In this document: one piece after another, positions 5,998 to 56,829 of the stretch
Numbering within the stretch: the stretch's first letter is position 1
Layout: every line of letters starts with the position of its first letter
Origin: Bacillota bacterium
GTDB lineage: Bacteria > Bacillota > Sulfobacillia > Fermentithermobacillales > Fermentithermobacillaceae
DNA length: 64,000 nucleotides
NCBI GenBank assembly: GCA_050952085.1
Contig: JBMNKH010000004.1
Location: 444,793 to 508,792, forward strand
Direction: 5' to 3'
Notes under the pieces: generated by a model
What the model was told of the DNA's origin: nothing
Database searches by the model: none
Seen by the model: the letters and a program-made list of their open reading frames with translations, nothing else
Position numbers and translations under genes: made by a program

Positions 5998-6878
5998 GAC
6001 TCATAGGATACATGTTTTCTCAAGCTTTCCGCAGTATATGGCGGAACAAGCTTTCGTCATTCCTTTCTGCGCTTACAACAGGATTCGCCCTTTTTCTGCT
6101 TGGGACAAGTTTCCTGGTCAGCATCAACCTAGGTTTTATGTATCAGATGGCTGAAACTCAGATGGAGATCCAAGCTTATATGAACAAAGAAGCTACTTAC
6201 TCAGAACTGGCAAGCGCCGCGACCCAGATACGGGAAATGCCGGGTGTGAGTGAAGTGAAGTTCGTCAGCAAGGAAGACGCCCTGGAAGAACTCAGGGAGA
6301 TGTTCAAGGATAAAGCGTCGGTGCTTGATTCACTGGAAGAGGACAACCCCCTCCCGCCTAGCGTCAGGATCAAGACTGTAGGCGCAGAGGAGATTCCCGG
6401 CGTGGTGGAAGCGCTTAAGAGCATTGACGTTGTAGACGATGTAATGTATCAGGAAGAAGTATCAAAGCGGCTTGTGCAAGTAGGCAAAGCCGTGCAATAC
6501 CTGTCCCTGGGCGGGATGCTGGTTGTAGGTCTTGTGTCTGTGATGGTCATAGCCAACTCTATCAGGCTTGCTATTGACGCCCGGAGGCAGGAGATCGGGA
6601 TAATGAAACTTGTGGGGGCTACTGACGGTTTCGTGCTGATGCCTTTTCTGTTTGAAGGGATTTTCCTCGGGTTTCTGGGCAGCGCTCTGGGAACAGGGTT
6701 TGCCCTTGGGGCTTACAACTGGGTTGCCGGGAAGATCGCCGAGTTTATACCCTTCATGCCAATAGTAGGGTTGGATAGCAGGTCCATATGGGACATGTTC
6801 GGGATAATGGCTTTGACAGGTGTCATGGTTGGGCTTACAGGCTCAGCTTTTTCAGTGAGGCGGCATCTTAGAGTCTAG
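5994..6878 (+). CDS. ftsX: Cell division permease FtsX
   Basis: N-terminal TM helix, large extracellular loop, three C-terminal TM helices. Start overlaps the ftsE stop (ATGA coupling). Confidence 0.9.
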   Translation: MRLIGYMFSQAFRSIWRNKLSSFLSALTTGFALFLLGTSFLVSINLGFMYQMAETQMEIQAYMNKEATYSELASAATQIREMPGVSEVKFVSKEDALEELREMFKDKASVLDSLEEDNPLPPSVRIKTVGAEEIPGVVEALKSIDVVDDVMYQEEVSKRLVQVGKAVQYLSLGGMLVVGLVSVMVIANSIRLAIDARRQEIGIMKLVGATDGFVLMPFLFEGIFLGFLGSALGTGFALGAYNWVAGKIAEFIPFMPIVGLDSRSIWDMFGIMALTGVMVGLTGSAFSVRRHLRV

Positions 6879-6899
6879 AGTTACCGGAGGCACATACAT

Positions 6900-8051
6900 A
6901 TGAGGAGAGGAAGAACCGTTTATTTCTGCGTGTTTTGCCTGGTTTTGCTGGCATTGGCAGTACACGCCCTTCCGGTTGCCCGGGCAGGCATACTGGATGA
7001 GAAATATGCAGAACTTGAGCAAATGCAGAAAGAGATCGAAGAAACCAGAAAACAAATCGAGGCAAAACGGCGCTCAGAAAGCTCTGTAATCAAGGAACTT
7101 GAACAGCTTGAACTTGAACTTGAACTTGCCCAGAGAGAACTTGACTACCTGCTGGCCAGGATACAGTATCTTGCAGACAGGATAGAAGAAACTGAGAAAG
7201 AAATCGCCGAGGTAGAAAAGAAGACACAAGAAAAAAAGGACCTGTTTTGCGACAGGCTGGTTTGCATGTACAAGGCAGGTAGAACTTCATACCTTGAAGT
7301 CCTCCTCGACTCAAAGAGCGTATCTGAGTTCATGGCCAGGCTCTATTACCTCCGCGAAATTGCCCAGGACGATGCACGGCTAATAGAAGAATACAAGGCA
7401 CTCAAGCAGGAACTCACCGAAAAGAAAGAGATGCTAGAACAAGATGTGCAAGATCTTACGGTGGCAAAGGCCCAGCAAGAGCAAAAGAGGGCTGCAGTTG
7501 CCTCCCGCAGCGCCGACAGGGAGCGGTACTTGGCCCAGATCCAACAGGACCGCAAGCAACTTGAGGAAGCCCTTGACCAAATCGAGCGGGAATCCAAAGC
7601 TTTGGAACAGGTGATCAGGGATCTACAGGCCCAGGGCCACCAACGTGAGAAGAAGGAAGGGCTTGCCATGATACGCCCTGTTCAAGGCGGCTGGGTAAGC
7701 TCTGAATACGGCAACAGGTGGCATCCTGTATTGCAGTATTACAGGTTCCATGCCGGCATTGACATTGCGGTGGACAGCGGTGTTCCTATTAAAGCCGCAG
7801 AGGATGGTACTGTCATCGTGGCCACCAGGGATTCGGGTTACGGGTATTACGTGGTCATAGACCACGGGGGAGGCATATCTACCCTTTACGCCCACTGTTC
7901 AAAACTGCTTGTAAACAAGGGTGACGTGGTGACGCGAGGGCAGACAATCGCCCTGGTAGGGAGCACGGGTATGTCCACAGGCCCCCACCTCCACTTTGAA
8001 GTGCGCGTAAACGGCGCCACAGATGATCCAAGGAAGTGGGTTCAGTTCTAG
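6900..8051 (+). CDS. M23 family peptidoglycan metalloendopeptidase with a long N-terminal coiled coil (EnvC/PcsB-like, FtsEX-associated)
   Basis: Signal peptide, about 230 aa of heptad-like E/K/Q-rich sequence, then M23 motifs HAGIDIAVDSG...YGYYVVIDHGGGISTLYAHC...GPHLHFEVRVNG. Confidence 0.85.
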   Translation: MRRGRTVYFCVFCLVLLALAVHALPVARAGILDEKYAELEQMQKEIEETRKQIEAKRRSESSVIKELEQLELELELAQRELDYLLARIQYLADRIEETEKEIAEVEKKTQEKKDLFCDRLVCMYKAGRTSYLEVLLDSKSVSEFMARLYYLREIAQDDARLIEEYKALKQELTEKKEMLEQDVQDLTVAKAQQEQKRAAVASRSADRERYLAQIQQDRKQLEEALDQIERESKALEQVIRDLQAQGHQREKKEGLAMIRPVQGGWVSSEYGNRWHPVLQYYRFHAGIDIAVDSGVPIKAAEDGTVIVATRDSGYGYYVVIDHGGGISTLYAHCSKLLVNKGDVVTRGQTIALVGSTGMSTGPHLHFEVRVNGATDDPRKWVQF

Positions 8052-8091
8052 GATAGGACGCATAACCAAGCTAAGACCGGAGCATGTTTGG

Positions 8092-8128
8092 GGCTGCCGG
8101 CAGTTTCCGCCTGGCAGCCTGGTTTTTT
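8092..8128 (+). terminator. Rho-independent terminator after the ftsEX-M23 operon
   Basis: GGCTGCCGG / CTGGCAGCC 9-bp stem with 10-nt loop, followed by TGGTTTTTT. Confidence 0.6.
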
Positions 8129-8325
8129 CAACGTGGTGGAATCCGGCCAGCGTCAATATTGCCTCGTGTTTCCGCCATATCACAGCTTGCCTTTGGCCTT
8201 GTCAGATATAGAAGCGAATCATCCAGATGTGCTAGACTGAATATAACTTAGTCCGGTAGTTTCAGACTAGTCTGTTAGTTTGCTTCCACGTGTGTATCTT
8301 GGAAACCAGGAAAGCGGTGATGTAA

Positions 8326-9450
8326 GTGGATACGATATCCAGGTCAAAGGCGGTAAGGTTATGCATCATCAGTGCTCTTGTAGCGGCCTTGCTAACTGCC
8401 GGCCTTGGCGCATATGCTTTGATACAGTTCACTCCGGTGGGCAAAGTTCTCGGCATTGTACGGCTGCTTGAACAAGCCTACTACAAAGACTTCGACCAGG
8501 CACAGGTTCTGGAGGGCGCCGCCAGGGGCGTTGTGGCAGCCTTGGGCGACCCGTACTCTGTGTATATGACCCAGGAGGAATGGGCTGAGTTCTATATACG
8601 CACAAGCGGCGAGTATTCAGGAATCGGTGTGACCATAACTGAGAAAGACGGCGGGGTATGCATCGTATCGCCTATGAAGGGCACGCCTGCAGAAGCGGCC
8701 GGCCTCAGAGTCAATGATTTCATAATAAAAGTTGACGGTAAGCCTGTATCCAGCAGTGATGAAGCAGCAGCTCTCATCAGGGGGCCTGCAGGCACTGAAG
8801 TGGTGATCACCATATACCGGGACGGGGATATGTTTGACGTGGCTATTGTAAGGGAAGACATAACCATCCCTGCAGTTGACTACTCCATGAAAGAAGAAGG
8901 GATAGGCTACATTGAACTAATAACCTTCAACGAGCATTCCAGCTTTGCCATGGCAGAAGCCATGCGTGAACTCGACGCCCAGGGCGCTAAAGCATACATC
9001 CTGGACCTGCGCTACAACGGTGGCGGGTTGCTCGACAGGTGCATCGATATTGCCAGGTTGTTCGTTCCTGAAGGCAATGTGGTGACGGTTAAGGGCAAGT
9101 CTTTTGAAGAAACAAGTTACACCTCCAAGGGGCCCGGGTTGGATAAGCCTTTGTTCGTATTGGTCAACGGGGGAACGGCCAGCGCTTCTGAAATCCTGGC
9201 AGGAGCTATTCAGGATTACCAGGTGGGAACACTGATAGGCACTACCACTTTCGGCAAAGGCCTGGTGCAGAATTCGTTCAAACTCAAGGACGGTTCTGTT
9301 GTAAAAGTGACCATAGCTGAGTATTTTACTCCTAACGGCCGTTCGATTAATGGCAAAGGGCTTGAGCCGGACATAATGGTAGAAGGGGACGATGAACAGC
9401 TGGCCAAAGCTGTTGAACTGGCCAGGGCTGAGCTTTCAGGAGCGTCGTAA
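8326..9450 (+). CDS. ctpA: Carboxyl-terminal processing protease (S41 family, PDZ-containing)
   Basis: N-terminal TM anchor, PDZ (GLRVNDFIIKVDGKPV), S41 core LDLRYNGGGLL...GTASASEILAGAIQDY...TFGKGLVQ. Confidence 0.88.
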   Translation: MDTISRSKAVRLCIISALVAALLTAGLGAYALIQFTPVGKVLGIVRLLEQAYYKDFDQAQVLEGAARGVVAALGDPYSVYMTQEEWAEFYIRTSGEYSGIGVTITEKDGGVCIVSPMKGTPAEAAGLRVNDFIIKVDGKPVSSSDEAAALIRGPAGTEVVITIYRDGDMFDVAIVREDITIPAVDYSMKEEGIGYIELITFNEHSSFAMAEAMRELDAQGAKAYILDLRYNGGGLLDRCIDIARLFVPEGNVVTVKGKSFEETSYTSKGPGLDKPLFVLVNGGTASASEILAGAIQDYQVGTLIGTTTFGKGLVQNSFKLKDGSVVKVTIAEYFTPNGRSINGKGLEPDIMVEGDDEQLAKAVELARAELSGAS

Positions 9451-50883: not shown

Positions 50884-51893
50884 GAACTCTTACATCCCTT
50901 TCAGGGGTTTCCGGAAACGAATATGAAGTCCGGTCTGCCATCATAAAAGAACTTGAGTCCATGGGGATTTCGTACGAATGCGACGTACTCGGAAACGTGA
51001 TCGCCAGGAAGGGCAACCAGGGGCCAAAGGTACTGGTTGATGCCCACATGGACGAAGTGGGACTTATCATTACCTACATTGAAAAAGACGGGTTCCTGAG
51101 GTTTCGCCCTGTAGGCGGCATAGATCCCCGGGTACTAGTTTCCAAGCGGGTGCTTGTAGGCAAGGAAAAGATCCCTGGGGTAATAGGAGCAAAAGCTATC
51201 CATCTCCAGGAACGTGATGAACGCACCCGGGTAATACCCACAGACCGGTTGTTTATCGATATAGGGGCAGAATCCCGGGAACAGGCCGAAAAAAAGGTGC
51301 AGCCCGGGGATTACGTGGTTTTTGACACTGAGTACGAAGAGCTGTCGCCGGGAATCGTTAAAGCTAAGGCTCTGGATGACAGGGTCGGGTGTGCCCTTCT
51401 GTTGGAGATACTGAAACAAGATTGGCAGAACATACAGCTATATGCCGTGTTTGCAGTCCAGGAAGAAGTAGGGCTGAGAGGGGCCAGGGTGGCTGCGTTT
51501 GCCGTTGAACCTGATATGGGCATAGCTCTTGAGGGCACAGTTTGTGCTGATATACCCGGGACAGACAAGGAATTCCAGGCAACCAGGTTAGGAAAGGGGG
51601 CTGCCCTGAGCATAATGGACAGGGGCTCCATACCTGACCGTGCAATGCTCAATCAACTTGTGAAGATTGCCGAGGACGAGGGGATACCTTACCAGTTCAG
51701 GGAAGCCACTTCAGGGGGCAATGACGCAGGCGTTATCCAGCAAGCTAAAGCAGGCTGCCCGGTAGCTTCCGTATCTGTGCCTTGCCGCTATATACATACC
51801 CCTTGTTCGGTCATGTCAATGTCAGATTTTGAAGCAGCCCGAAAATTGATCATCAAGTTCTTAGAGAGTGTTGAGGGAGGTTTCAGACCATGA
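50874..51893 (+). CDS. M42 family aminopeptidase, paralog 2
   Basis: SGVSGNEYEV...HMDEVGLII...ALDDRVGC...VQEEVGLRGA. Confidence 0.85.
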   Translation: MDLRTLTSLSGVSGNEYEVRSAIIKELESMGISYECDVLGNVIARKGNQGPKVLVDAHMDEVGLIITYIEKDGFLRFRPVGGIDPRVLVSKRVLVGKEKIPGVIGAKAIHLQERDERTRVIPTDRLFIDIGAESREQAEKKVQPGDYVVFDTEYEELSPGIVKAKALDDRVGCALLLEILKQDWQNIQLYAVFAVQEEVGLRGARVAAFAVEPDMGIALEGTVCADIPGTDKEFQATRLGKGAALSIMDRGSIPDRAMLNQLVKIAEDEGIPYQFREATSGGNDAGVIQQAKAGCPVASVSVPCRYIHTPCSVMSMSDFEAARKLIIKFLESVEGGFRP

Positions 51894-52957
51894 AAGACCT
51901 TATCAAGAGACTGACAGAGACTTTTGGGCCTTCGGGTTCCGAGGGACCCATAAGGGAAGTTATCAGGAAAGAAGTTGAGCCCTATGTTGACGAGATCAGG
52001 GTTGACGCTCTGGGCAATTTCATATGCTTCAAGAAAGGGAGCGGCGGAGGGAAAAAGGTAATCCTTGATGCCCATATGGATGAAATCGGCGCTATAGTGA
52101 CGCATATAGACGAAAACGGATTCCTGCGGTTTGCGAATATCGGAGGAGTGTCCCCTGTGATCTCTCTGGGGCAGCGGGTGTATTTCGAGAACGGTACCTT
52201 TGGTGTGATTGGATGCGAGAAGCTGGATGACATAAAAGACCTGAAACTCGAAAAACTCTATATCGACATTGGTGCCGCCAGCCGCGAAGAAGCCTCAAAG
52301 AAGGTCAAGGTAGGCGACATGGCCGCTTTCTTCCAGCCTGCGATTGACCTGGGCAACCGCATGGTAGCCAAAGCAATGGATGACAGGATTGGTTGCGTAG
52401 TTGTGATTGAAGTTTTGAAGAGATTGAAGCAAACAGCACATGACATCTACGCAGTGTTCGCAAGCCAGGAAGAGGTCGGACTGAGGGGCGCCAGGGTAGC
52501 TGCCTACGGGATCAACCCTGACGTGGGCATAGCTTTTGATGTTACGGGAACGGGTGATACCCCCAAATCCCATACCATGGATGTATCCCTTGGTAAAGGC
52601 GCAGCTATCAAGGTCAAAGATTCCAGCTTGATCTGCCATCCCGGGCTCAGGGATTACCTTGTGAAACTGGCTGAGGAGAACGGCATTCCGTACCAGATGG
52701 AAGTCCTGGAACGGGGAGGCACAGATTCAGGCGCCATCCAACTGACACGGGCAGGGATACCGGCAGGGGTGATATCAATTCCGTCCAGGTATATCCACAG
52801 CCCCTGTGAGATGGTGGATCTGGGTGACGTAGAAGCTTGCGTCAAGCTTTGCGTAGCTGCATGTGAAAGTCCGCTGGATTCTGCTGCCCCCAGAGCGGGG
52901 CAAGCAGGCCATAGAATCCGGGGAAGAATCCGGGAGGGCGTTTCCCCTTTTTCTTGA
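51890..52957 (+). CDS. M42 family aminopeptidase, paralog 3
   Basis: FGPSGSEGPIREV...HMDEIGAIV...AMDDRIGC...SQEEVGLRGA. Confidence 0.85.
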   Translation: MKDLIKRLTETFGPSGSEGPIREVIRKEVEPYVDEIRVDALGNFICFKKGSGGGKKVILDAHMDEIGAIVTHIDENGFLRFANIGGVSPVISLGQRVYFENGTFGVIGCEKLDDIKDLKLEKLYIDIGAASREEASKKVKVGDMAAFFQPAIDLGNRMVAKAMDDRIGCVVVIEVLKRLKQTAHDIYAVFASQEEVGLRGARVAAYGINPDVGIAFDVTGTGDTPKSHTMDVSLGKGAAIKVKDSSLICHPGLRDYLVKLAEENGIPYQMEVLERGGTDSGAIQLTRAGIPAGVISIPSRYIHSPCEMVDLGDVEACVKLCVAACESPLDSAAPRAGQAGHRIRGRIREGVSPFS

Positions 52958-52981
52958 GGGAAATGCCCTCTGATCTTTTTG
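52956..52981 (+). terminator. Weak hairpin plus T-tract after the M42 cluster
   Basis: GAGGG-aaatg-CCCTC then TGATCTTTTTG. Confidence 0.35.
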
Positions 52982-53132
52982 TAGCTGCTGATCCATCCGT
53001 GCCTGCTTGTCTTTCTGTGCCTGGACAGCCTGTATGAGGACGTGCTTGTGGACGACCTGTGTGGGGGCGTGCTCTTGATCCCCAGGTTCTTTGCTCTTAG
53101 CTCATAGAAGGCCAATAGAAGACCAGCGGAAT

Positions 53133-53790
53133 GGTGCACTACGTGCACCATTTTAGCCTGTTTCCCGTCTCACCAACGATAAAACGGCGTACCACGTGCA
53201 CCATTCCGGTCCATTTCCGGCCTTGCGGTCGCTGAAATGGTGCACCACATGCACCATTCTGGCCTGTTTGCAGTCTCGCCATCGACATGACGGTGCACTA
53301 CATGCACCATTCTGGCTCACCTTCAGCCTTCCGGCCCATGAAATGGTGCACCACGTACACCATTCTGACCTGTTTGCTGTCTCGCCATCGACAAAATGGT
53401 GCACTACATGCACCATTCTGGCTCACCTTCAGCCTTTCGGCCCATGAAATGGTGTACCACGTACGCCATTCTGACCTGTTTGCTGTTCCGCCATCGACAA
53501 AATGGTGTACCACGTGCACCATTTTGGCCTGTTCCCCGTCTCGCCAACGACAAAACGGTGCACCACGTGCACCATTCCTGTCCATTTCCGGCCTTTCGGC
53601 CCATGAAATGGTGTACCACATGCACCATTTTGGCCTGTCTTACTTCTCTCCGACGACAAAATGGTGCACTACATGCACCATACTGCGTCCATTCTTATCT
53701 TTCTGTTGCTGAAACGGTGCACCGCGTGCACCATTATGAATTCGTTTCCGCCTTGCTACCCCCAAAACGGTGCAGCAAGTGCACCAAGAA
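53133..53790. repeat. Array of 13 copies of a 23-bp hairpin repeat (AATGGTGCACCACGTGCACCATT) with exactly 30-bp spacers (53-bp period). CRISPR-like geometry, but the spacers fall into two alternating related families.
   Basis: Seen directly in the sequence. Repeat copies at about 53133, 53186, 53239, 53292, 53345, 53398, 53451, 53504, 53557, 53610, 53663, 53716 and 53769. The last copies are degenerate. No cas genes in the window. Lies in the convergent intergenic region. Confidence 0.8.
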
Positions 53791-53878
53791 CCTGGAATCT
53801 ATGCTGTGATCCGTGCCTAGCCCCAGTACCCGTACCCGGCTCCAATCCGGCAAGTATCAGATGAGGAGTCCGGGAGGC

Positions 53879-56098
53879 CTAATAGGTACCGGCTCCTGAA
53901 GCAGGGGAGAAGTATTCCTCAAGAGCCTTTAATACTCCCCTGGCTGCCGCTTCCTGAACGTGATCTTGCTTGAGCAGGTCTTCTTCCCTGGGATTGGACA
54001 AGTACATTACTTCAACCAAGACCGAGGGGCAGTGGGATTCCCTGTTGACGAAGAAGTTTGAATCTTTAACTCCCCTGTCAACAGTACCAAGGCTTGCTGT
54101 CAGGTGTTTCTGGATCAGTGTCGCCAGCCGCCTGGATTCAGACGTGTTCAAAGTCTGGCTGCAGATATAAGAAGTTGTGCCTGCAGTTTGGCGGTTGCTA
54201 TGCCAGTCGTTATGTATGGAAACGAAGGCGTGAGTTTTCTGCGACCATGCCGCCCTCTTAGCCAGGTCACCTGAATATTCGTCTATGTCAGGCTTCCAAT
54301 CTTCAGGAGGAGTGGCATCTTCAAATTCTCCCAACCTGGTGAGAATAACAGTTGCTCCTGCTGACTCAAGCAGGTCACGGAGTTTGAGGGCGATTTTCCA
54401 GTTTACCGTCCGTTCCTGGTAGCCTGTGGGGCCTGATGCCCCTGGATCGTTTCCGCCGTGCCCTGGGTCAACCACGATCACCTTGCCTGAGAGCCCCGGG
54501 TTGGGGAAGAAGGCTTCCAGGGAGTTGGCATTTTTCTTGAGCAGGTAGGTACCGCTTAGAGATGCGTCCATGGATAAGCTGACGCCATCGTTGGTGGCAC
54601 CGATATCCACCTTCCTAACTAAATCGCCGCGAACCAGTGAGGCTTGTCCGGCGTAAGAAGCGCCTGGCAGGAACATTGTAACCGAGCTGCCGTTCCTGGT
54701 TACAGTGGGCCATGTATATCCAAGGGTGTGCACTGTAAGCACTTCCCCGTCGTCCTCACGCCTCACATCAATTCCGGTGACTGTGGGCGCAAAGCCGAGC
54801 ACCACTTTTCCCGGCGATTGCTCTTGGACGATATATGACGGAGCTTCGGAAAACCTTATGGTAACATCGCTTCCTTCGACCTTAACCGATTCAAACTCGT
54901 AGGCGTTTATGTCGAGCCTGCCTGCTGTTTTGAAAAACTCAGAGGTGCTAATTACCAATGCGTTGTCTTCCCTGCGTATAATCTGGCAGGTTTGAAACGG
55001 ACCCTGCAGTGTAAGGGTACGGATACTTGAACTTGCGTCAAGTGCCACTGAAAAGCTTGGGGATGCACCGGCAGAAGCACCGGTGGTCAGCCACGATGCC
55101 ACCCAGCCTACAACGCCTTTGGGTGAAATACCCCTTATCCAGCGATCCCGCACTTCAAGCACACGGATTATGTCGCCTTTTTGCACCATGGAGATCACAG
55201 GGTAGTTGGTGCCAGGACCTGCCCTAAAATTCACGTCAGTAGCGTTTACCGTAGTTGAACTGTATTTCCCCAGAGACCACGATGTTTCAGATACACCGAA
55301 GGAAAGGGAAGGGTCGTTTACTGCGGAAATCACCGAATCAGGGCCGTATACCCAGCCTCTTATCCCGGCCGAAGTCTGCACCGCAATCCATGCGCCTCTT
55401 GACGTGATGTACTTGGCAGAATCCCCTGATCTCAAGGTGGCCATAACAGGCGAGCCCTTAATGGGCCTCTGATATACTGTCACCGATCCGCCCCGGGGGC
55501 CTACCACCATGTCTCCTGCCACAGGGGTAGTCTCCTCGATGACAGGGAGGGTCAATTGCAGCAGCTCCTCAAAGATCCATGCCGTGCGTCCGCTTCCCAG
55601 GGATACCCTGATCCAGTCGTTGCGCTTAGCTTCAGCAGGATATGTATGGCCTCTTTGAGTCACCCCCAGCGCAGGATAGTCTGTGCCCGGACCCTGGCGC
55701 ATGTTTACATCGGTTCTGGTTATGACTGCAGATATGCCGCGTGAACTCAGGTCGATGTCAACGAGCCACGCTGCGATCCACGCTTCTTTGCCTTTATATG
55801 ATATCTTAAGCCAATCGTTTTCGATGGATATTATGTCCAGCCAGGTACCTTCCAGCACTGTCCCTACAATGCTGTGATTTGTGCCTGGGCCTGACCTTAG
55901 ATTACACACATCTCCCACTACAACACCTTTGAAACCTGCGAAGTCAGACGGCATAAGCGGGCTATTGCCGCTGGACAAGGCCGTTTGAGGCTGACATGCA
56001 AGGCTCAGGGCCATAGCCAGGAGAAGCACGCCAGGCAACCCCCGGCCGTTTGCTCTTGAAAAAGGTCTTATCGAAAAATGTCGGATATGTTTGGTCAT
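53879..56098 (-). CDS. N-acetylmuramoyl-L-alanine amidase (Amidase_3) with N-terminal bacterial SH3 domains and signal peptide
   Basis: C-terminal KVIVVDPGHGGNDPGA...TVILTR...FVSIHNDW. Several SH3b-like units (GVVVGDVCNLRSGPGTNHSIVGTVLEGTWLDI). Confidence 0.85.
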   Translation of the reverse strand: MTKHIRHFSIRPFSRANGRGLPGVLLLAMALSLACQPQTALSSGNSPLMPSDFAGFKGVVVGDVCNLRSGPGTNHSIVGTVLEGTWLDIISIENDWLKISYKGKEAWIAAWLVDIDLSSRGISAVITRTDVNMRQGPGTDYPALGVTQRGHTYPAEAKRNDWIRVSLGSGRTAWIFEELLQLTLPVIEETTPVAGDMVVGPRGGSVTVYQRPIKGSPVMATLRSGDSAKYITSRGAWIAVQTSAGIRGWVYGPDSVISAVNDPSLSFGVSETSWSLGKYSSTTVNATDVNFRAGPGTNYPVISMVQKGDIIRVLEVRDRWIRGISPKGVVGWVASWLTTGASAGASPSFSVALDASSSIRTLTLQGPFQTCQIIRREDNALVISTSEFFKTAGRLDINAYEFESVKVEGSDVTIRFSEAPSYIVQEQSPGKVVLGFAPTVTGIDVRREDDGEVLTVHTLGYTWPTVTRNGSSVTMFLPGASYAGQASLVRGDLVRKVDIGATNDGVSLSMDASLSGTYLLKKNANSLEAFFPNPGLSGKVIVVDPGHGGNDPGASGPTGYQERTVNWKIALKLRDLLESAGATVILTRLGEFEDATPPEDWKPDIDEYSGDLAKRAAWSQKTHAFVSIHNDWHSNRQTAGTTSYICSQTLNTSESRRLATLIQKHLTASLGTVDRGVKDSNFFVNRESHCPSVLVEVMYLSNPREEDLLKQDHVQEAAARGVLKALEEYFSPASGAGTY

Positions 56099-56292: not shown

Positions 56293-56409
56293 CGTGAAAG
56301 TGTCAATGCATCACTAGGGGCAATGACTGAAATGCGTCTTCTCATAGTTTGGCACTGTGTTATATTGGTGTCCCTGTTCTTGGTGCTCGTTCTCTCGATG
56401 CCCGTCCTC

Positions 56410-56829
56410 TTAGTGCCCGTGTTCTTGGTGTTCGTGCTCCTCTGTCTTGATTTCTATGTCAATCCCTTGCTTCTTGTAGTAATCCTGAATTGCAGCGTGT
56501 ACTGCTTCGGCCGCCAGGTTAGAGCAATGCAGCTTCTGCGGGGGTAACCCGCCCAGGGATTCTGCCACTTGCTTATTTGAAACTTCCAGTGCTTCTTCCA
56601 AAGTGAGCCCCTTGACCAACTCAGTCACCATGGAACTGGTGGCAATCGCAGCCCCGCACCCGAAAGTCCTGAACTTGATGTCTTCAATCCTGTTGTCCTT
56701 TATCCTCAGGGTTATCCTCATCATATCCCCGCACACAGGATTTCCGACCTGGCCAACGCCATCAGGATTTTCAAGTTCCCCTACGTTTCTGGGATTGAAA
56801 AAATGGTCCATAACTTTCTCATTGTACAT
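56410..56829 (-). CDS. nifU: Fe-S cluster assembly scaffold NifU/IscU with His-rich C-terminal tail
   Basis: NPVCGDMMRITL, FGCGAAIATSS, and HCSNLAAEA with three conserved Cys. Tail EHEHQEHGH. Confidence 0.9.
   Translation of the reverse strand: MYNEKVMDHFFNPRNVGELENPDGVGQVGNPVCGDMMRITLRIKDNRIEDIKFRTFGCGAAIATSSMVTELVKGLTLEEALEVSNKQVAESLGGLPPQKLHCSNLAAEAVHAAIQDYYKKQGIDIEIKTEEHEHQEHGH

Follow-up and report, generated by a model that had tools for sequence, protein, structure and literature searches.

Three tandem M42 peptidase paralogues converge with a gene for an SH3-repeat N-acetylmuramoyl-L-alanine amidase (SH3-Amidase_3) in the window, by which we mean the whole 64,000-nucleotide stretch of DNA analyzed here; nifU/nifS also lie among the neighbors. 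The third peptidase gene (51890–52957, + strand) and the amidase gene (53879–56098, − strand) are separated by a convergent gap of 921 bp (52958–53878 by ORF calls), in line with the 920-bp gap described in the sequence-only reading, an earlier note made without database searches. One or more terminator-like hairpins with a T-run follow the M42 operon (52932–52985, + strand). The repeat array, which spans about 660 bp (53130–53788, + strand), is located between this hairpin and the amidase stop codon, beginning 173 bp after the stop codon of the peptidase gene and ending 91 bp from that of the amidase gene. If transcription of the amidase gene continues to the shared terminator, the 3′ untranslated region of the transcript would include the array. 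The non-repeat DNA that leads from the terminator to the array (52990–53129) has no counterpart in relatives and contains a 27-bp repeat present 1.9 times (53022–53073) and an 11-bp repeat present twice (53104–53125). An exact-protein look-up returned no record for the M42 protein of the window because the gene has a variant 3′ end in this strain.

The array is composed of 13 head-to-tail copies of a unit of exactly 53 bp, each consisting of a 23-bp repeat, approximately AATGGTGCAC-NNN-GTGCACCATT, and a 30-bp linker. Repeats start at 53130 + 53n, and the linkers, or “spacers”, are uniform in length (30 bp in 12/12), so the copy number, period and spacer length noted earlier were all recovered. 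TRF detects the 53-bp period and also one of 106 bp (85% matches). All units run forward on the + strand, with a higher nhmmer score for the unit profile on the + than on the − strand in 12 of the 13. The same profile detected no further copies elsewhere in the 64-kb window, and the motif had no matches in shuffled sequence.

The consensus is a palindrome with 10-bp arms around a 3-nt centre and a predicted DNA hairpin of −9.8 kcal/mol, in keeping with the short imperfect stem-loops of REP/BIME elements. The individual repeats are more varied than first described: all 13 differ in sequence, with a mean pairwise identity of 84% (65–96%), and the exact consensus 23-mer is absent from every one. 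The 8-bp palindrome GGTGCACC, previously assigned to all copies, is present in just four. Perfect 10-bp arms, likewise assigned to all, are found solely in copy 1 (AATGGTGCACTACGTGCACCATT, 53130–53152, DNA hairpin −9.8 kcal/mol; this and all other copies on the + strand), and the other copies carry one to four arm mismatches. A single mismatch is present in copies 3 (AATGGTGCACCACATGCACCATT, 53236–53258), 5 (AATGGTGCACCACGTACACCATT, 53342–53364), 6 (AATGGTGCACTACATGCACCATT, 53395–53417), 8 (AATGGTGTACCACGTGCACCATT, 53501–53523), 9 (AACGGTGCACCACGTGCACCATT, 53554–53576) and 12 (AACGGTGCACCGCGTGCACCATT, 53713–53735), and two are present in copies 10 (AATGGTGTACCACATGCACCATT, 53607–53629) and 11 (AATGGTGCACTACATGCACCATA, 53660–53682). 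Copies 2 (AACGGCGTACCACGTGCACCATT, 53183–53205) and 4 (GACGGTGCACTACATGCACCATT, 53289–53311) have three each, and copy 2 folds no better than its shuffles. In copy 7 (AATGGTGTACCACGTACGCCATT, 53448–53470), the pair T8–A16 is altered on both sides and there is one T.G mismatch. The terminal copy 13 (AACGGTGCAGCAAGTGCACCAAG, 53766–53788) has four mismatches and is degenerate. Both distal copies had been called degenerate and placed at 53716 and 53769; they begin 3 bp earlier, at 53713 and 53766, and only the last is clearly so. As a separate observation made with restriction-modification in mind, GTGCAC occurs 3 times compared with 5.2 expected from a Markov model, which is not a striking avoidance.

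The linkers fall into two families. Family A comprises units 1, 3, 5, 7, 8 and 10 (pairwise identity 60–93%), and family B comprises units 2, 4, 6 and 9 (63–97%), with unit 11 as a weak member. Linkers of A and B share 37–53% identity, and on this basis the two families are related. The families and the higher-order repeat of about 106 bp stand as originally proposed, but the alternation breaks once, at units 7 and 8, which both belong to A. The youngest block, units 3–7 (A-B-A-B-A; 53236–53500, + strand), is a 106-bp higher-order repeat, with dimer 3–4 being 92% identical to dimer 5–6. This repeat is nested within an older duplication, in which the dimer A′-B′ of units 1–2 (53130–53235, + strand) is 88% identical to its partner, units 8–9 (53501–53606, + strand). 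The resemblance of units 1–2 to units 8–9 is evidence that duplications occurred within the array, one nested in another, and that units were not simply added at one end. Other arrays of the same kind, introduced below, contain a 318-bp duplication (L004) or runs of similar monomers (L003 and L048), and the duplicated lengths among the arrays are 53, 106 and 318 bp. The amplification unit is the 53-bp unit of palindrome plus linker, and the arrays grow by internal tandem duplication of one, two or six units.

The orthologous amidase/M42 locus was located in four related species, whose amidases are 86, 79, 72 and 65% identical to that of the window. In these species the gap between the two genes is only 67–144 bp and neither array nor palindrome is present (0 of 4), and a comparable hairpin lies between the converging genes. 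Absence from the orthologous site in all four shows that the window array was gained recently, by insertion between the stop codon of the amidase gene and the terminator that this gene shares with the M42 operon. A contig from the same species (99.9% identical) carries an identical array. On a contig from a diverged strain there is a register-breaking deletion of 44 bp, which may be an assembly artefact. Most short-read contigs with the amidase gene stop within the array, which evidently breaks short-read assemblies.

The same palindrome at the same 53-bp period recurs in about a dozen other arrays and in single copies, in MAGs of Candidatus Fermentithermobacillaceae and allied Bacillota and in metagenomes. 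MAG LFST01 (DTU015) carries arrays on at least two contigs and single copies at two more places, a second MAG (DUVI01) carries a 12-unit array, and metagenomes supply at least 10 further arrays, including a pair on a single 42-kb contig and another pair on a 599-kb contig. All copies seen lie outside genes. Both flanks are visible for 12 arrays or single copies; each of the 12 has a gene's 3′ end no more than about 200 bp away, and none is placed between divergent gene starts. The neighbors are unrelated housekeeping genes, with no neighboring gene in common. The 88 ORFs around 14 related loci included neither a Cas family nor any gene family that recurs; when ORFs of at least 40 aa within 3 kb of the arrays were compared all against all, only ABC-type ATPases were shared, and none of the 25 most frequent Pfam families listed for about 190 kb of flanks was recurrent. 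A tblastn search with an IS200 TnpA sequence, a test of low power, gave no match to a Y1 transposase. A literature search for the repeat sequence returned unrelated primers only.

Units at these different loci, in several related genomes, share descent. Every related array is as degenerate in its repeats as the window array, and the units are head-to-tail in all of them. The palindrome is preceded by AA and followed by TY, the latter opening a semi-conserved tail, TY....G.TTTYC. Comparing linkers in register between loci, we found 58 pairs with at most 12 mismatches in 30 positions versus none in shuffles, and a positional linker profile is common to all arrays, including that of the window. 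The window linkers resemble those of other arrays through this shared profile only, their best distances being 13–17 of 30 against a null mean of 16.5. A specific homology of window family A to units of L048 and L070 was accordingly rejected, the distances being no better than the profile gives. Other metagenome families have the same core palindrome with different flanks (TAG before, CTA after). Two 51-bp arrays with this core (L052 and L060) were considered as a sister family and dropped; 51 bp is 17 codons, the arrays are open in frame and they may be coding.

The 53-bp register is maintained much more strictly than drift predicts, and this is the sole unusual feature of the array. Across the arrays there are about 4 length changes versus at least 434 linker substitutions, while a typical intergenic region from this lineage has 0.2–0.3 gap events per mismatch. 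The arrays thus have an at least 20-fold deficit of indels, although the sequence of their linkers is by now close to random. The one large length change, in L104, is +10 bp. Within the palindrome, arm positions G4, G5, A9, T15, C19 and C20 hardly vary, and the centre triplet is unconstrained across the family. Transitions and transversions number 53:11 in the arms versus 80:54 in the linkers, indicating that transversions are purged from the arms. Taken together, the near-invariant positions and the purging of transversions show that the palindrome is under constraint and not merely drifting. The strict register may reflect a phased protein-binding array or units measured by an enzyme.

We conclude that the array is an intergenic repeat of the REP/BIME or minisatellite (“false CRISPR”) kind and not an immune array. 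Probably (a probability of roughly 0.6) it belongs to a previously undescribed, lineage-specific family of extragenic palindromes, AATGGTGCAC-N3-GTGCACCATT, that has been amplified into BIME-like or minisatellite-like head-to-tail arrays. The host range of the family is Candidatus Fermentithermobacillaceae-like Bacillota. The observations favor this BIME/REP-like option, one of three offered by the sequence-only reading: the same palindrome and period occur at unrelated intergenic sites, these sites have no neighboring gene in common, and four species lack the array at the orthologous locus. Dispersal of the units over many intergenic sites, which that reading had named as evidence against CRISPR, is what we see across related MAGs and metagenomes taken together.

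Several features are shared with the REP and BIME-2 elements of Enterobacteria and Pseudomonas: (i) short (20–40 bp) imperfect extragenic palindromes near gene ends, seen here at unrelated intergenic sites across several MAGs and metagenomes, (ii) clusters formed by tandem reiteration together with flanking DNA, and (iii) differences in copy number and presence between relatives (PMC3733652, PMC3333891). BIME-2 elements are themselves tandem and variable in copy number (PMC3333891), and head–tail dimers as well as untagged REP-like families have been described (PMC3733652). There are also differences. The REP/BIME tag GTAG or CGTC is absent here; BIMEs alternate REP and iREP, whereas our units all have the same orientation; and BIME-2 copies at one locus are well conserved (PMC3333891), whereas the units within an array here are old and strongly diverged, yet in exact 53-bp register. 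Compared with classical REPs, copies are mostly in arrays and few are single, and their density looks low (one array and no single copies in 64 kb). No cognate RAYT is known for this palindrome family, no Y1 transposase was seen in the flanks searched, and the host is an uncultured Bacillota lineage.

The MIRU minisatellites of Mycobacterium tuberculosis have units of a few tens of bp, comparable to those of the arrays here; they are not built around a strong palindrome and have no sequence relation to our arrays. Like these arrays, MIRUs are intergenic tandem repeats at many loci, have been proposed to share transcripts with the genes beside them and differ in copy number (PMC3635867). A further parallel is with false-CRISPR and STAR repeats, which combine repeat-spacer geometry and related “spacers” with several loci per genome and no companion cas genes (PMC5294841). 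The STAR signature T[G/A/T]TGTTG[G/T]GGCCC[C/A] is absent, the repeat here being a 10-3-10 palindrome.

For such a palindrome family, the units could be duplicated by unequal recombination or replication slippage between palindromes, and new loci may be seeded from existing copies, possibly by a hairpin-recognizing HUH/Y1 (RAYT-like) enzyme. The window array would then be a passive passenger in the 3′ portion of the amidase transcript, and its hairpins could there impede read-through or 3′ exonucleases.

A different explanation, which we consider possible but rather unlikely, is that the array is bound by a protein in phase, as sopC of the F plasmid is. Here the palindrome would be the site of a dimeric protein, and 53 bp, or five turns of 10.6 bp, would present all sites on one face of the DNA for cooperative assembly of an insulator, a chromosome-organizing element or a decoy. 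The sopC locus provides a precedent: its 12 direct repeats, each 43 bp long, all contain a 16-bp inverted repeat to which SopB binds (PMC3177203); both have about 12 direct repeats at a fixed period (43 versus 53 bp) with an inverted repeat in each (PMC3177203). This explanation accounts for the register kept through near-random linkers with its at least 20-fold indel deficit, for a single large length change of one helical turn and for the purging of transversions from the arms. The conservation is symmetric and position-specific (G4, G5, A9/T15, C19, C20), with no covariation and no strand bias, as direct read-out of double-stranded DNA predicts, rather than pairing. However, sopC is a single locus beside sopAB with near-identical units, whereas here there are many loci with diverged units and without par genes. 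No ParA/ParB or recurrent DNA-binding gene adjoins the arrays, there are several arrays in a genome, at sites unrelated to one another, many of the copies are heavily degraded, and the +10 event was seen just once. Absence from the orthologous site in the closest relatives is not what a conserved chromosomal function would predict, and the 44-bp deletion in the diverged strain, unless an assembly artefact, breaks the register.

In a broader version of this idea, the arrays would be phase-locked scaffolds whose 53-bp register (five helical turns) is kept by selection. Selection could act through a cooperative dimeric protein on one DNA face, making the arrays a multi-locus chromosomal analogue of sopC, or through a hairpin-guided HUH enzyme that measures fixed hairpin-to-cleavage distances on both sides, such that only exact 53-bp units stay amplifiable. 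We regard this version as speculative and unlikely.

It is improbable that the array acts as RNA, as in the structured RNA or terminator array that was the remaining option of the sequence-only reading, with transcribed hairpins in the amidase/M42 3′ region serving as weak bidirectional terminators, 3′ exonuclease barriers or a processed or sponge small RNA. Its location in the convergent gap, ahead of the shared terminator with respect to amidase transcription, would suit such a role, and all family members that can be evaluated adjoin gene 3′ ends. Flanking A and T runs lengthen many hairpins to AAAATGG...CCATTTT, one unit has a terminator-like score, and effects on transcription termination and on mRNA stability have been reported for REP hairpins (background in PMC3733652, PMC3333891). 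The substitutions, however, do not follow RNA pairing: wobble-type mismatches are about equally common for either strand (76 versus 66), without bias between G.T and A.C, and there is no enrichment of compensatory double changes (16 observed versus about 13 expected). The orientation of the arrays relative to the adjacent gene is inconsistent (6 versus 4), a promoter scan found no promoter-like site, and a function as RNA would not explain why the register is exactly 53 nt. Rfam returned no matches at gathering thresholds for the whole window and none even at E ≤ 1 for positions 52900–53900. Type III toxin–antitoxin RNA repeats (ToxI-like), which require near-identical repeats upstream of a toxN-like gene, were rejected as a candidate; the units are diverged and there is no conserved downstream gene.

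An orphan or decaying CRISPR array with cas genes lost or elsewhere, also suggested in the sequence-only reading, is very improbable. The likeness is in geometry, namely a regularly spaced palindromic repeat of 23 bp, spacers that are all 30 bp long and degeneracy of the last repeat. In CRISPR arrays, however, repeats are near-identical, whereas here there are 13 distinct sequences with a mean identity of 84% and a centre triplet that is free across the family. The spacers are of internal origin: they form related families with a shared conserved box, are homologous in register between loci in related arrays, and multiply by internal duplication. There is no conserved leader, and no locus with more than two exact repeats was found in 185,579 species genomes. 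The reported lack of cas genes holds, with no Cas family among the 60 ORFs of the window, and PADLOC and Pfam gave no relevant Cas or defense proteins in the window or around the 14 related loci. The proposed comparison of family A and B spacers with phages and plasmids produced no protospacers: blastn of the array against phage and plasmid collections gave no match, and in IMG/VR neither the repeat pattern nor the linker cores of either family matched, while a paired-palindrome pattern retrieved unrelated repeats only. “False-CRISPRs”, with similar spacers and without cas genes, make up about 27% of predicted CRISPRs (PMC5294841).

The probability that the His-rich ORFs (MVHVVHH...) are real genes is negligible: although ORFs of 107–141 aa cover parts of the array on both strands and coding would likewise select against indels, 53 is not a multiple of 3, all frames are interrupted with no array-spanning ORF here or in L003, and such long ORFs are expected by composition given a palindrome that is stop-free in all frames and A-poor linkers (18.5% A), in line with their original dismissal as repeat artefacts.

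The array is a clean CRISPR look-alike, and arrays of this kind should be masked in CRISPR annotation of Bacillota MAGs. With this family, REP-like palindromes that form arrays become known from an uncultured thermophilic Bacillota lineage. The approximately 100 diverged units of the family at a fixed register form a natural data set for asking whether the arrays are selfish or reflect constraint from a spacing-sensitive protein or enzyme. If the phase-locked scaffold were true, it would represent a new functional class of bacterial intergenic array in this uncultured lineage.

The 921-bp convergent gap between the M42 peptidase cluster and the amidase gene holds 13 copies of a 23-bp palindrome (window 53130-53788, + strand), whose starts fall at 53130 + 53n, so that all linkers are 30 bp long. 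The sequence-only reading was essentially right about this element: its copy number, 53-bp period, linker length and convergent location all stand. It had also described one repeat sequence with perfect 10-bp arms in each copy, which holds for copy 1 alone; the remaining copies carry 1-4 arm mismatches, all 13 differ in sequence (mean identity 84%), and the consensus AATGGTGCACCACGTGCACCATT has zero exact occurrences among them. Searching the whole 64 kb with up to 3 mismatches gave 11 copy positions, all in the array and none elsewhere (12 hits are counted because both strands of copy 1 match), dinucleotide shuffles gave zero matches at this threshold, and a profile built from ~100 units found no match in the window outside the array. 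The two linker families noticed earlier are real: units 1, 3, 5, 7, 8 and 10 form family A, and units 2, 4, 6 and 9, with unit 11 as a weak member, form family B, the two being 37-53% identical. Tandem Repeats Finder recovers both the 53-bp period and the proposed higher-order period of 106 bp (85% matches). Dimers 3-4 and 5-6 are 92% identical and dimers 1-2 and 8-9 are 88% identical, a pattern of unit identities that shows growth of the array through nested internal duplication.

We regard the array as a REP/BIME-like or minisatellite element, with a probability of roughly 0.6; of the options first offered, a BIME-like palindromic element fits best. A scan of 185,579 species-representative genomes with AAYGGTGYACYRCRTRCACCATT returned six stretches: four in the MAG "Candidatus Fermentithermobacillaceae bacterium DTU015", one in a "Bacillota bacterium" MAG, and a single copy, about the chance expectation, in a Chitinophagaceae MAG. 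Three loci outside the window (L003, L004, L005) are arrays of 7-12 units with a period of exactly 53 bp, as in the window, and two (L002, L006) are lone palindromes immediately 3' of stop codons. A metagenome scan for paired palindromes at a distance of 26-46 bp yielded over 115 loci, including about ten more arrays of the window's family, recognised by their AAT...ATT flanks. The other matches are different families with the common core GGTGCAC-N3-GTGCACC, many of them marked by the classical-REP signature TAG...CTA, and some arranged in tandem with periods of 46, 53 and 66 bp. GTAG/CTAC-tagged REP-type palindromes with this stem form strict tandem arrays of these same periods in other metagenomes (L038 5748-6000, L020 5841-6020, L013 3500-4000); the stem sequence thus recurs in classical REP families. 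The window family lacks the tag and does not alternate in orientation and is therefore not a GTAG-REP family in the strict sense; both its head-to-tail layout and the missing tag have precedents among recorded REP-like families (PMC3733652). BIME-2 elements are likewise tandem and differ in copy number between strains (PMC3333891).

Unrelated genes flank 14 family loci (HydF, MFS, MatE, ABC transporters, P5C dehydrogenase, SPOR, PHP and others); neither a Cas family nor a recurrent family nor a transposase was detected in these flanks, and no small ORF is common to array flanks. Wherever both flanks are visible (12 arrays or single copies), the element is within ~200 bp of the 3' end of a gene, and in no case does it sit between divergent starts; its orientation relative to the adjacent gene is inconsistent (6 one way, 4 opposite). 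In species at 86, 79, 72 and 65% amidase identity, the orthologous amidase/M42 gap is 67-144 bp long with neither array nor palindrome, and in the closest relative it holds a hairpin terminator alone; a 99.9% identical JGI contig of the same species carries the identical array. Together these comparisons show that the array is a recent, lineage-specific gain, which entered between the stop codon of the amidase gene and the terminator shared with the M42 operon. A PmbA/TldD gene pair lies between the amidase and M42 genes in relatives at 65-79% amidase identity (L155-L161, ~6300-9100) and is absent from the window's species (52958-53878) and the 86% relative, so more than one remodelling event has taken place at this junction. 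The 140 bp from the M42 terminator to the first palindrome contain a 27-bp x1.9 repeat (53022-53073) and an 11-bp x2 repeat (53104-53125), do not match the unit profile and have no counterpart at array-less orthologous loci.

The gap is bounded by a tandem trio of M42 peptidase genes on the + strand, which ends at 52957, with a terminator-like hairpin and T-run 3' of the operon (52932-52985), and by a 739-aa SH3/Amidase_3 gene (- strand, stop at 53879); further out on the amidase side are nifU, nifS and an Rrf2 regulator. No promoter-like site was found in a scan of the 921 bp, and the remaining window genes are housekeeping (uvrABC, prfB, rpoN, tsaD and others). Relative to L141, a 99.9% identical JGI contig, and to related species, the third M42 gene has a 9-bp indel cluster (52878-52889) that deletes the stop codon (elsewhere after ...SPLDF) and adds a 24-aa tail (355 aa vs 331 aa), which explains why an exact-protein look-up found no match. 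Five copies of the 15-bp tandem repeat TTGGTGCCCGTGCTC (56365-56439) span the nifU 3' end, where the C-terminus is His/Glu-rich (...EEHEHQEHGH); NifU lengths of 124, 128, 132, 139 and 149 aa among relatives suggest a variable, repeat-driven tail.

The register is kept too well for a selfish minisatellite under simple drift. Recognisably related units have accumulated at least 434 linker substitutions and zero length changes, with about four length changes in the whole data set, and nearly all of ~115 intervals between neighbouring palindromes are 53 bp or multiples of it (exceptions: 52 bp twice and 63 bp once). An ordinary intergenic region of the same lineage (nifU-amidase), 311, 263, 239, 220 and 183 bp long in five species, shows 0.2-0.3 gap events per mismatch, which makes the indel deficit in the linkers at least 20-fold. 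Selection for helical phasing of putative protein-binding sites is one inferred, rather unlikely cause; 53 bp corresponds to 5 turns at 10.6 bp each, and the sole large length change is +10 bp: a 63-bp unit (L104 11061-11123, also L115) that arose by tandem duplication of the 10-bp linker piece GATGTTTTCC (x2), one helical turn. Against a hard constraint, a strain ~1.3% diverged (L147, Logan ERR6160958; 6 substitutions in the array, all transitions) has a 44-bp deletion, aligned to window 53570-53613, that fuses palindrome 9 with palindrome 10 and disrupts the 53-bp register; this deletion could be either genuine or an artefact of short-read assembly. The other inferred cause is an amplifying enzyme that would gauge how far its cleavage sites on either side lie from the hairpin.

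The stacked units give the directional profile AATGGTGCAC nnn GTGCACCAWT TY....G.TTTYC, ~15 free positions, AA, and all arrays are head-to-tail. G4, G5, A9, T15, C19 and C20 are nearly invariant, and the three central bases vary as freely as the variable linker. The arms are constrained: their divergence plateaus near 0.15 per site while linkers go on to 0.29 and higher, and transversions are purged from them (Ts:Tv 53:11 vs 80:54 in linkers). An RNA-level role could coexist with either a REP/BIME-like or a phased-binding array. Mismatched G.T and A.C arm pairs are equally frequent (66 vs 76), so no strand is favoured as RNA, and pairs altered on both sides are not in excess (~16 observed vs ~13 expected under independence), so selection on pairing as such is not visible.

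The suggestion of an orphan or decayed CRISPR array fails on four of five defining features. Cas families matched none of the 60 window ORFs, as the sequence-only reading had stated, and arrays have no leader or terminal sequence in common. Its proposed check of the linkers against phage and plasmid sequence gave no match for the array or linker cores, IMG/VR included. Linkers of different loci and genomes are much closer in register than shuffled controls (58 between-locus pairs with at most 12/30 mismatches vs 0), and two arrays on one contig (L016, L049) have similar units in common; the linkers are not spacers of foreign origin. Unit-for-unit homology of the window array with other arrays was dropped, since its best linker distances are 13-17 against a null mean of 16.5 and the family profile alone is in common. 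"False-CRISPRs", which resemble CRISPR arrays but have related spacers and lack cas genes, account for ~27% of naive CRISPR predictions (PMC5294841). A protein-coding repeat is rejected, since the 53-bp period is not divisible by 3 and all frames are interrupted, the ORFs crossing the array being artefacts, as first read. Two arrays with the GGTGCAC-N3-GTGCACC core in metagenome Ga0065721 (L052 2572-3850, 24 units; L060 940-1650, 14 units) have a 51-bp period and near-identical linkers, almost constant in L060 while the centre triplet changes (CCG, CTG, CCA, CCC); these may be coding repeats, as 51 bp is 17 codons and ORFs of ~410 aa read through both.

The properties of the array match those of REP/BIME-2 or MIRU-type elements, with which we file it as a putative new family of a known kind that would work as they do. 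The element is thus of an ordinary type found in a new lineage; its one quantitative peculiarity is the indel deficit.
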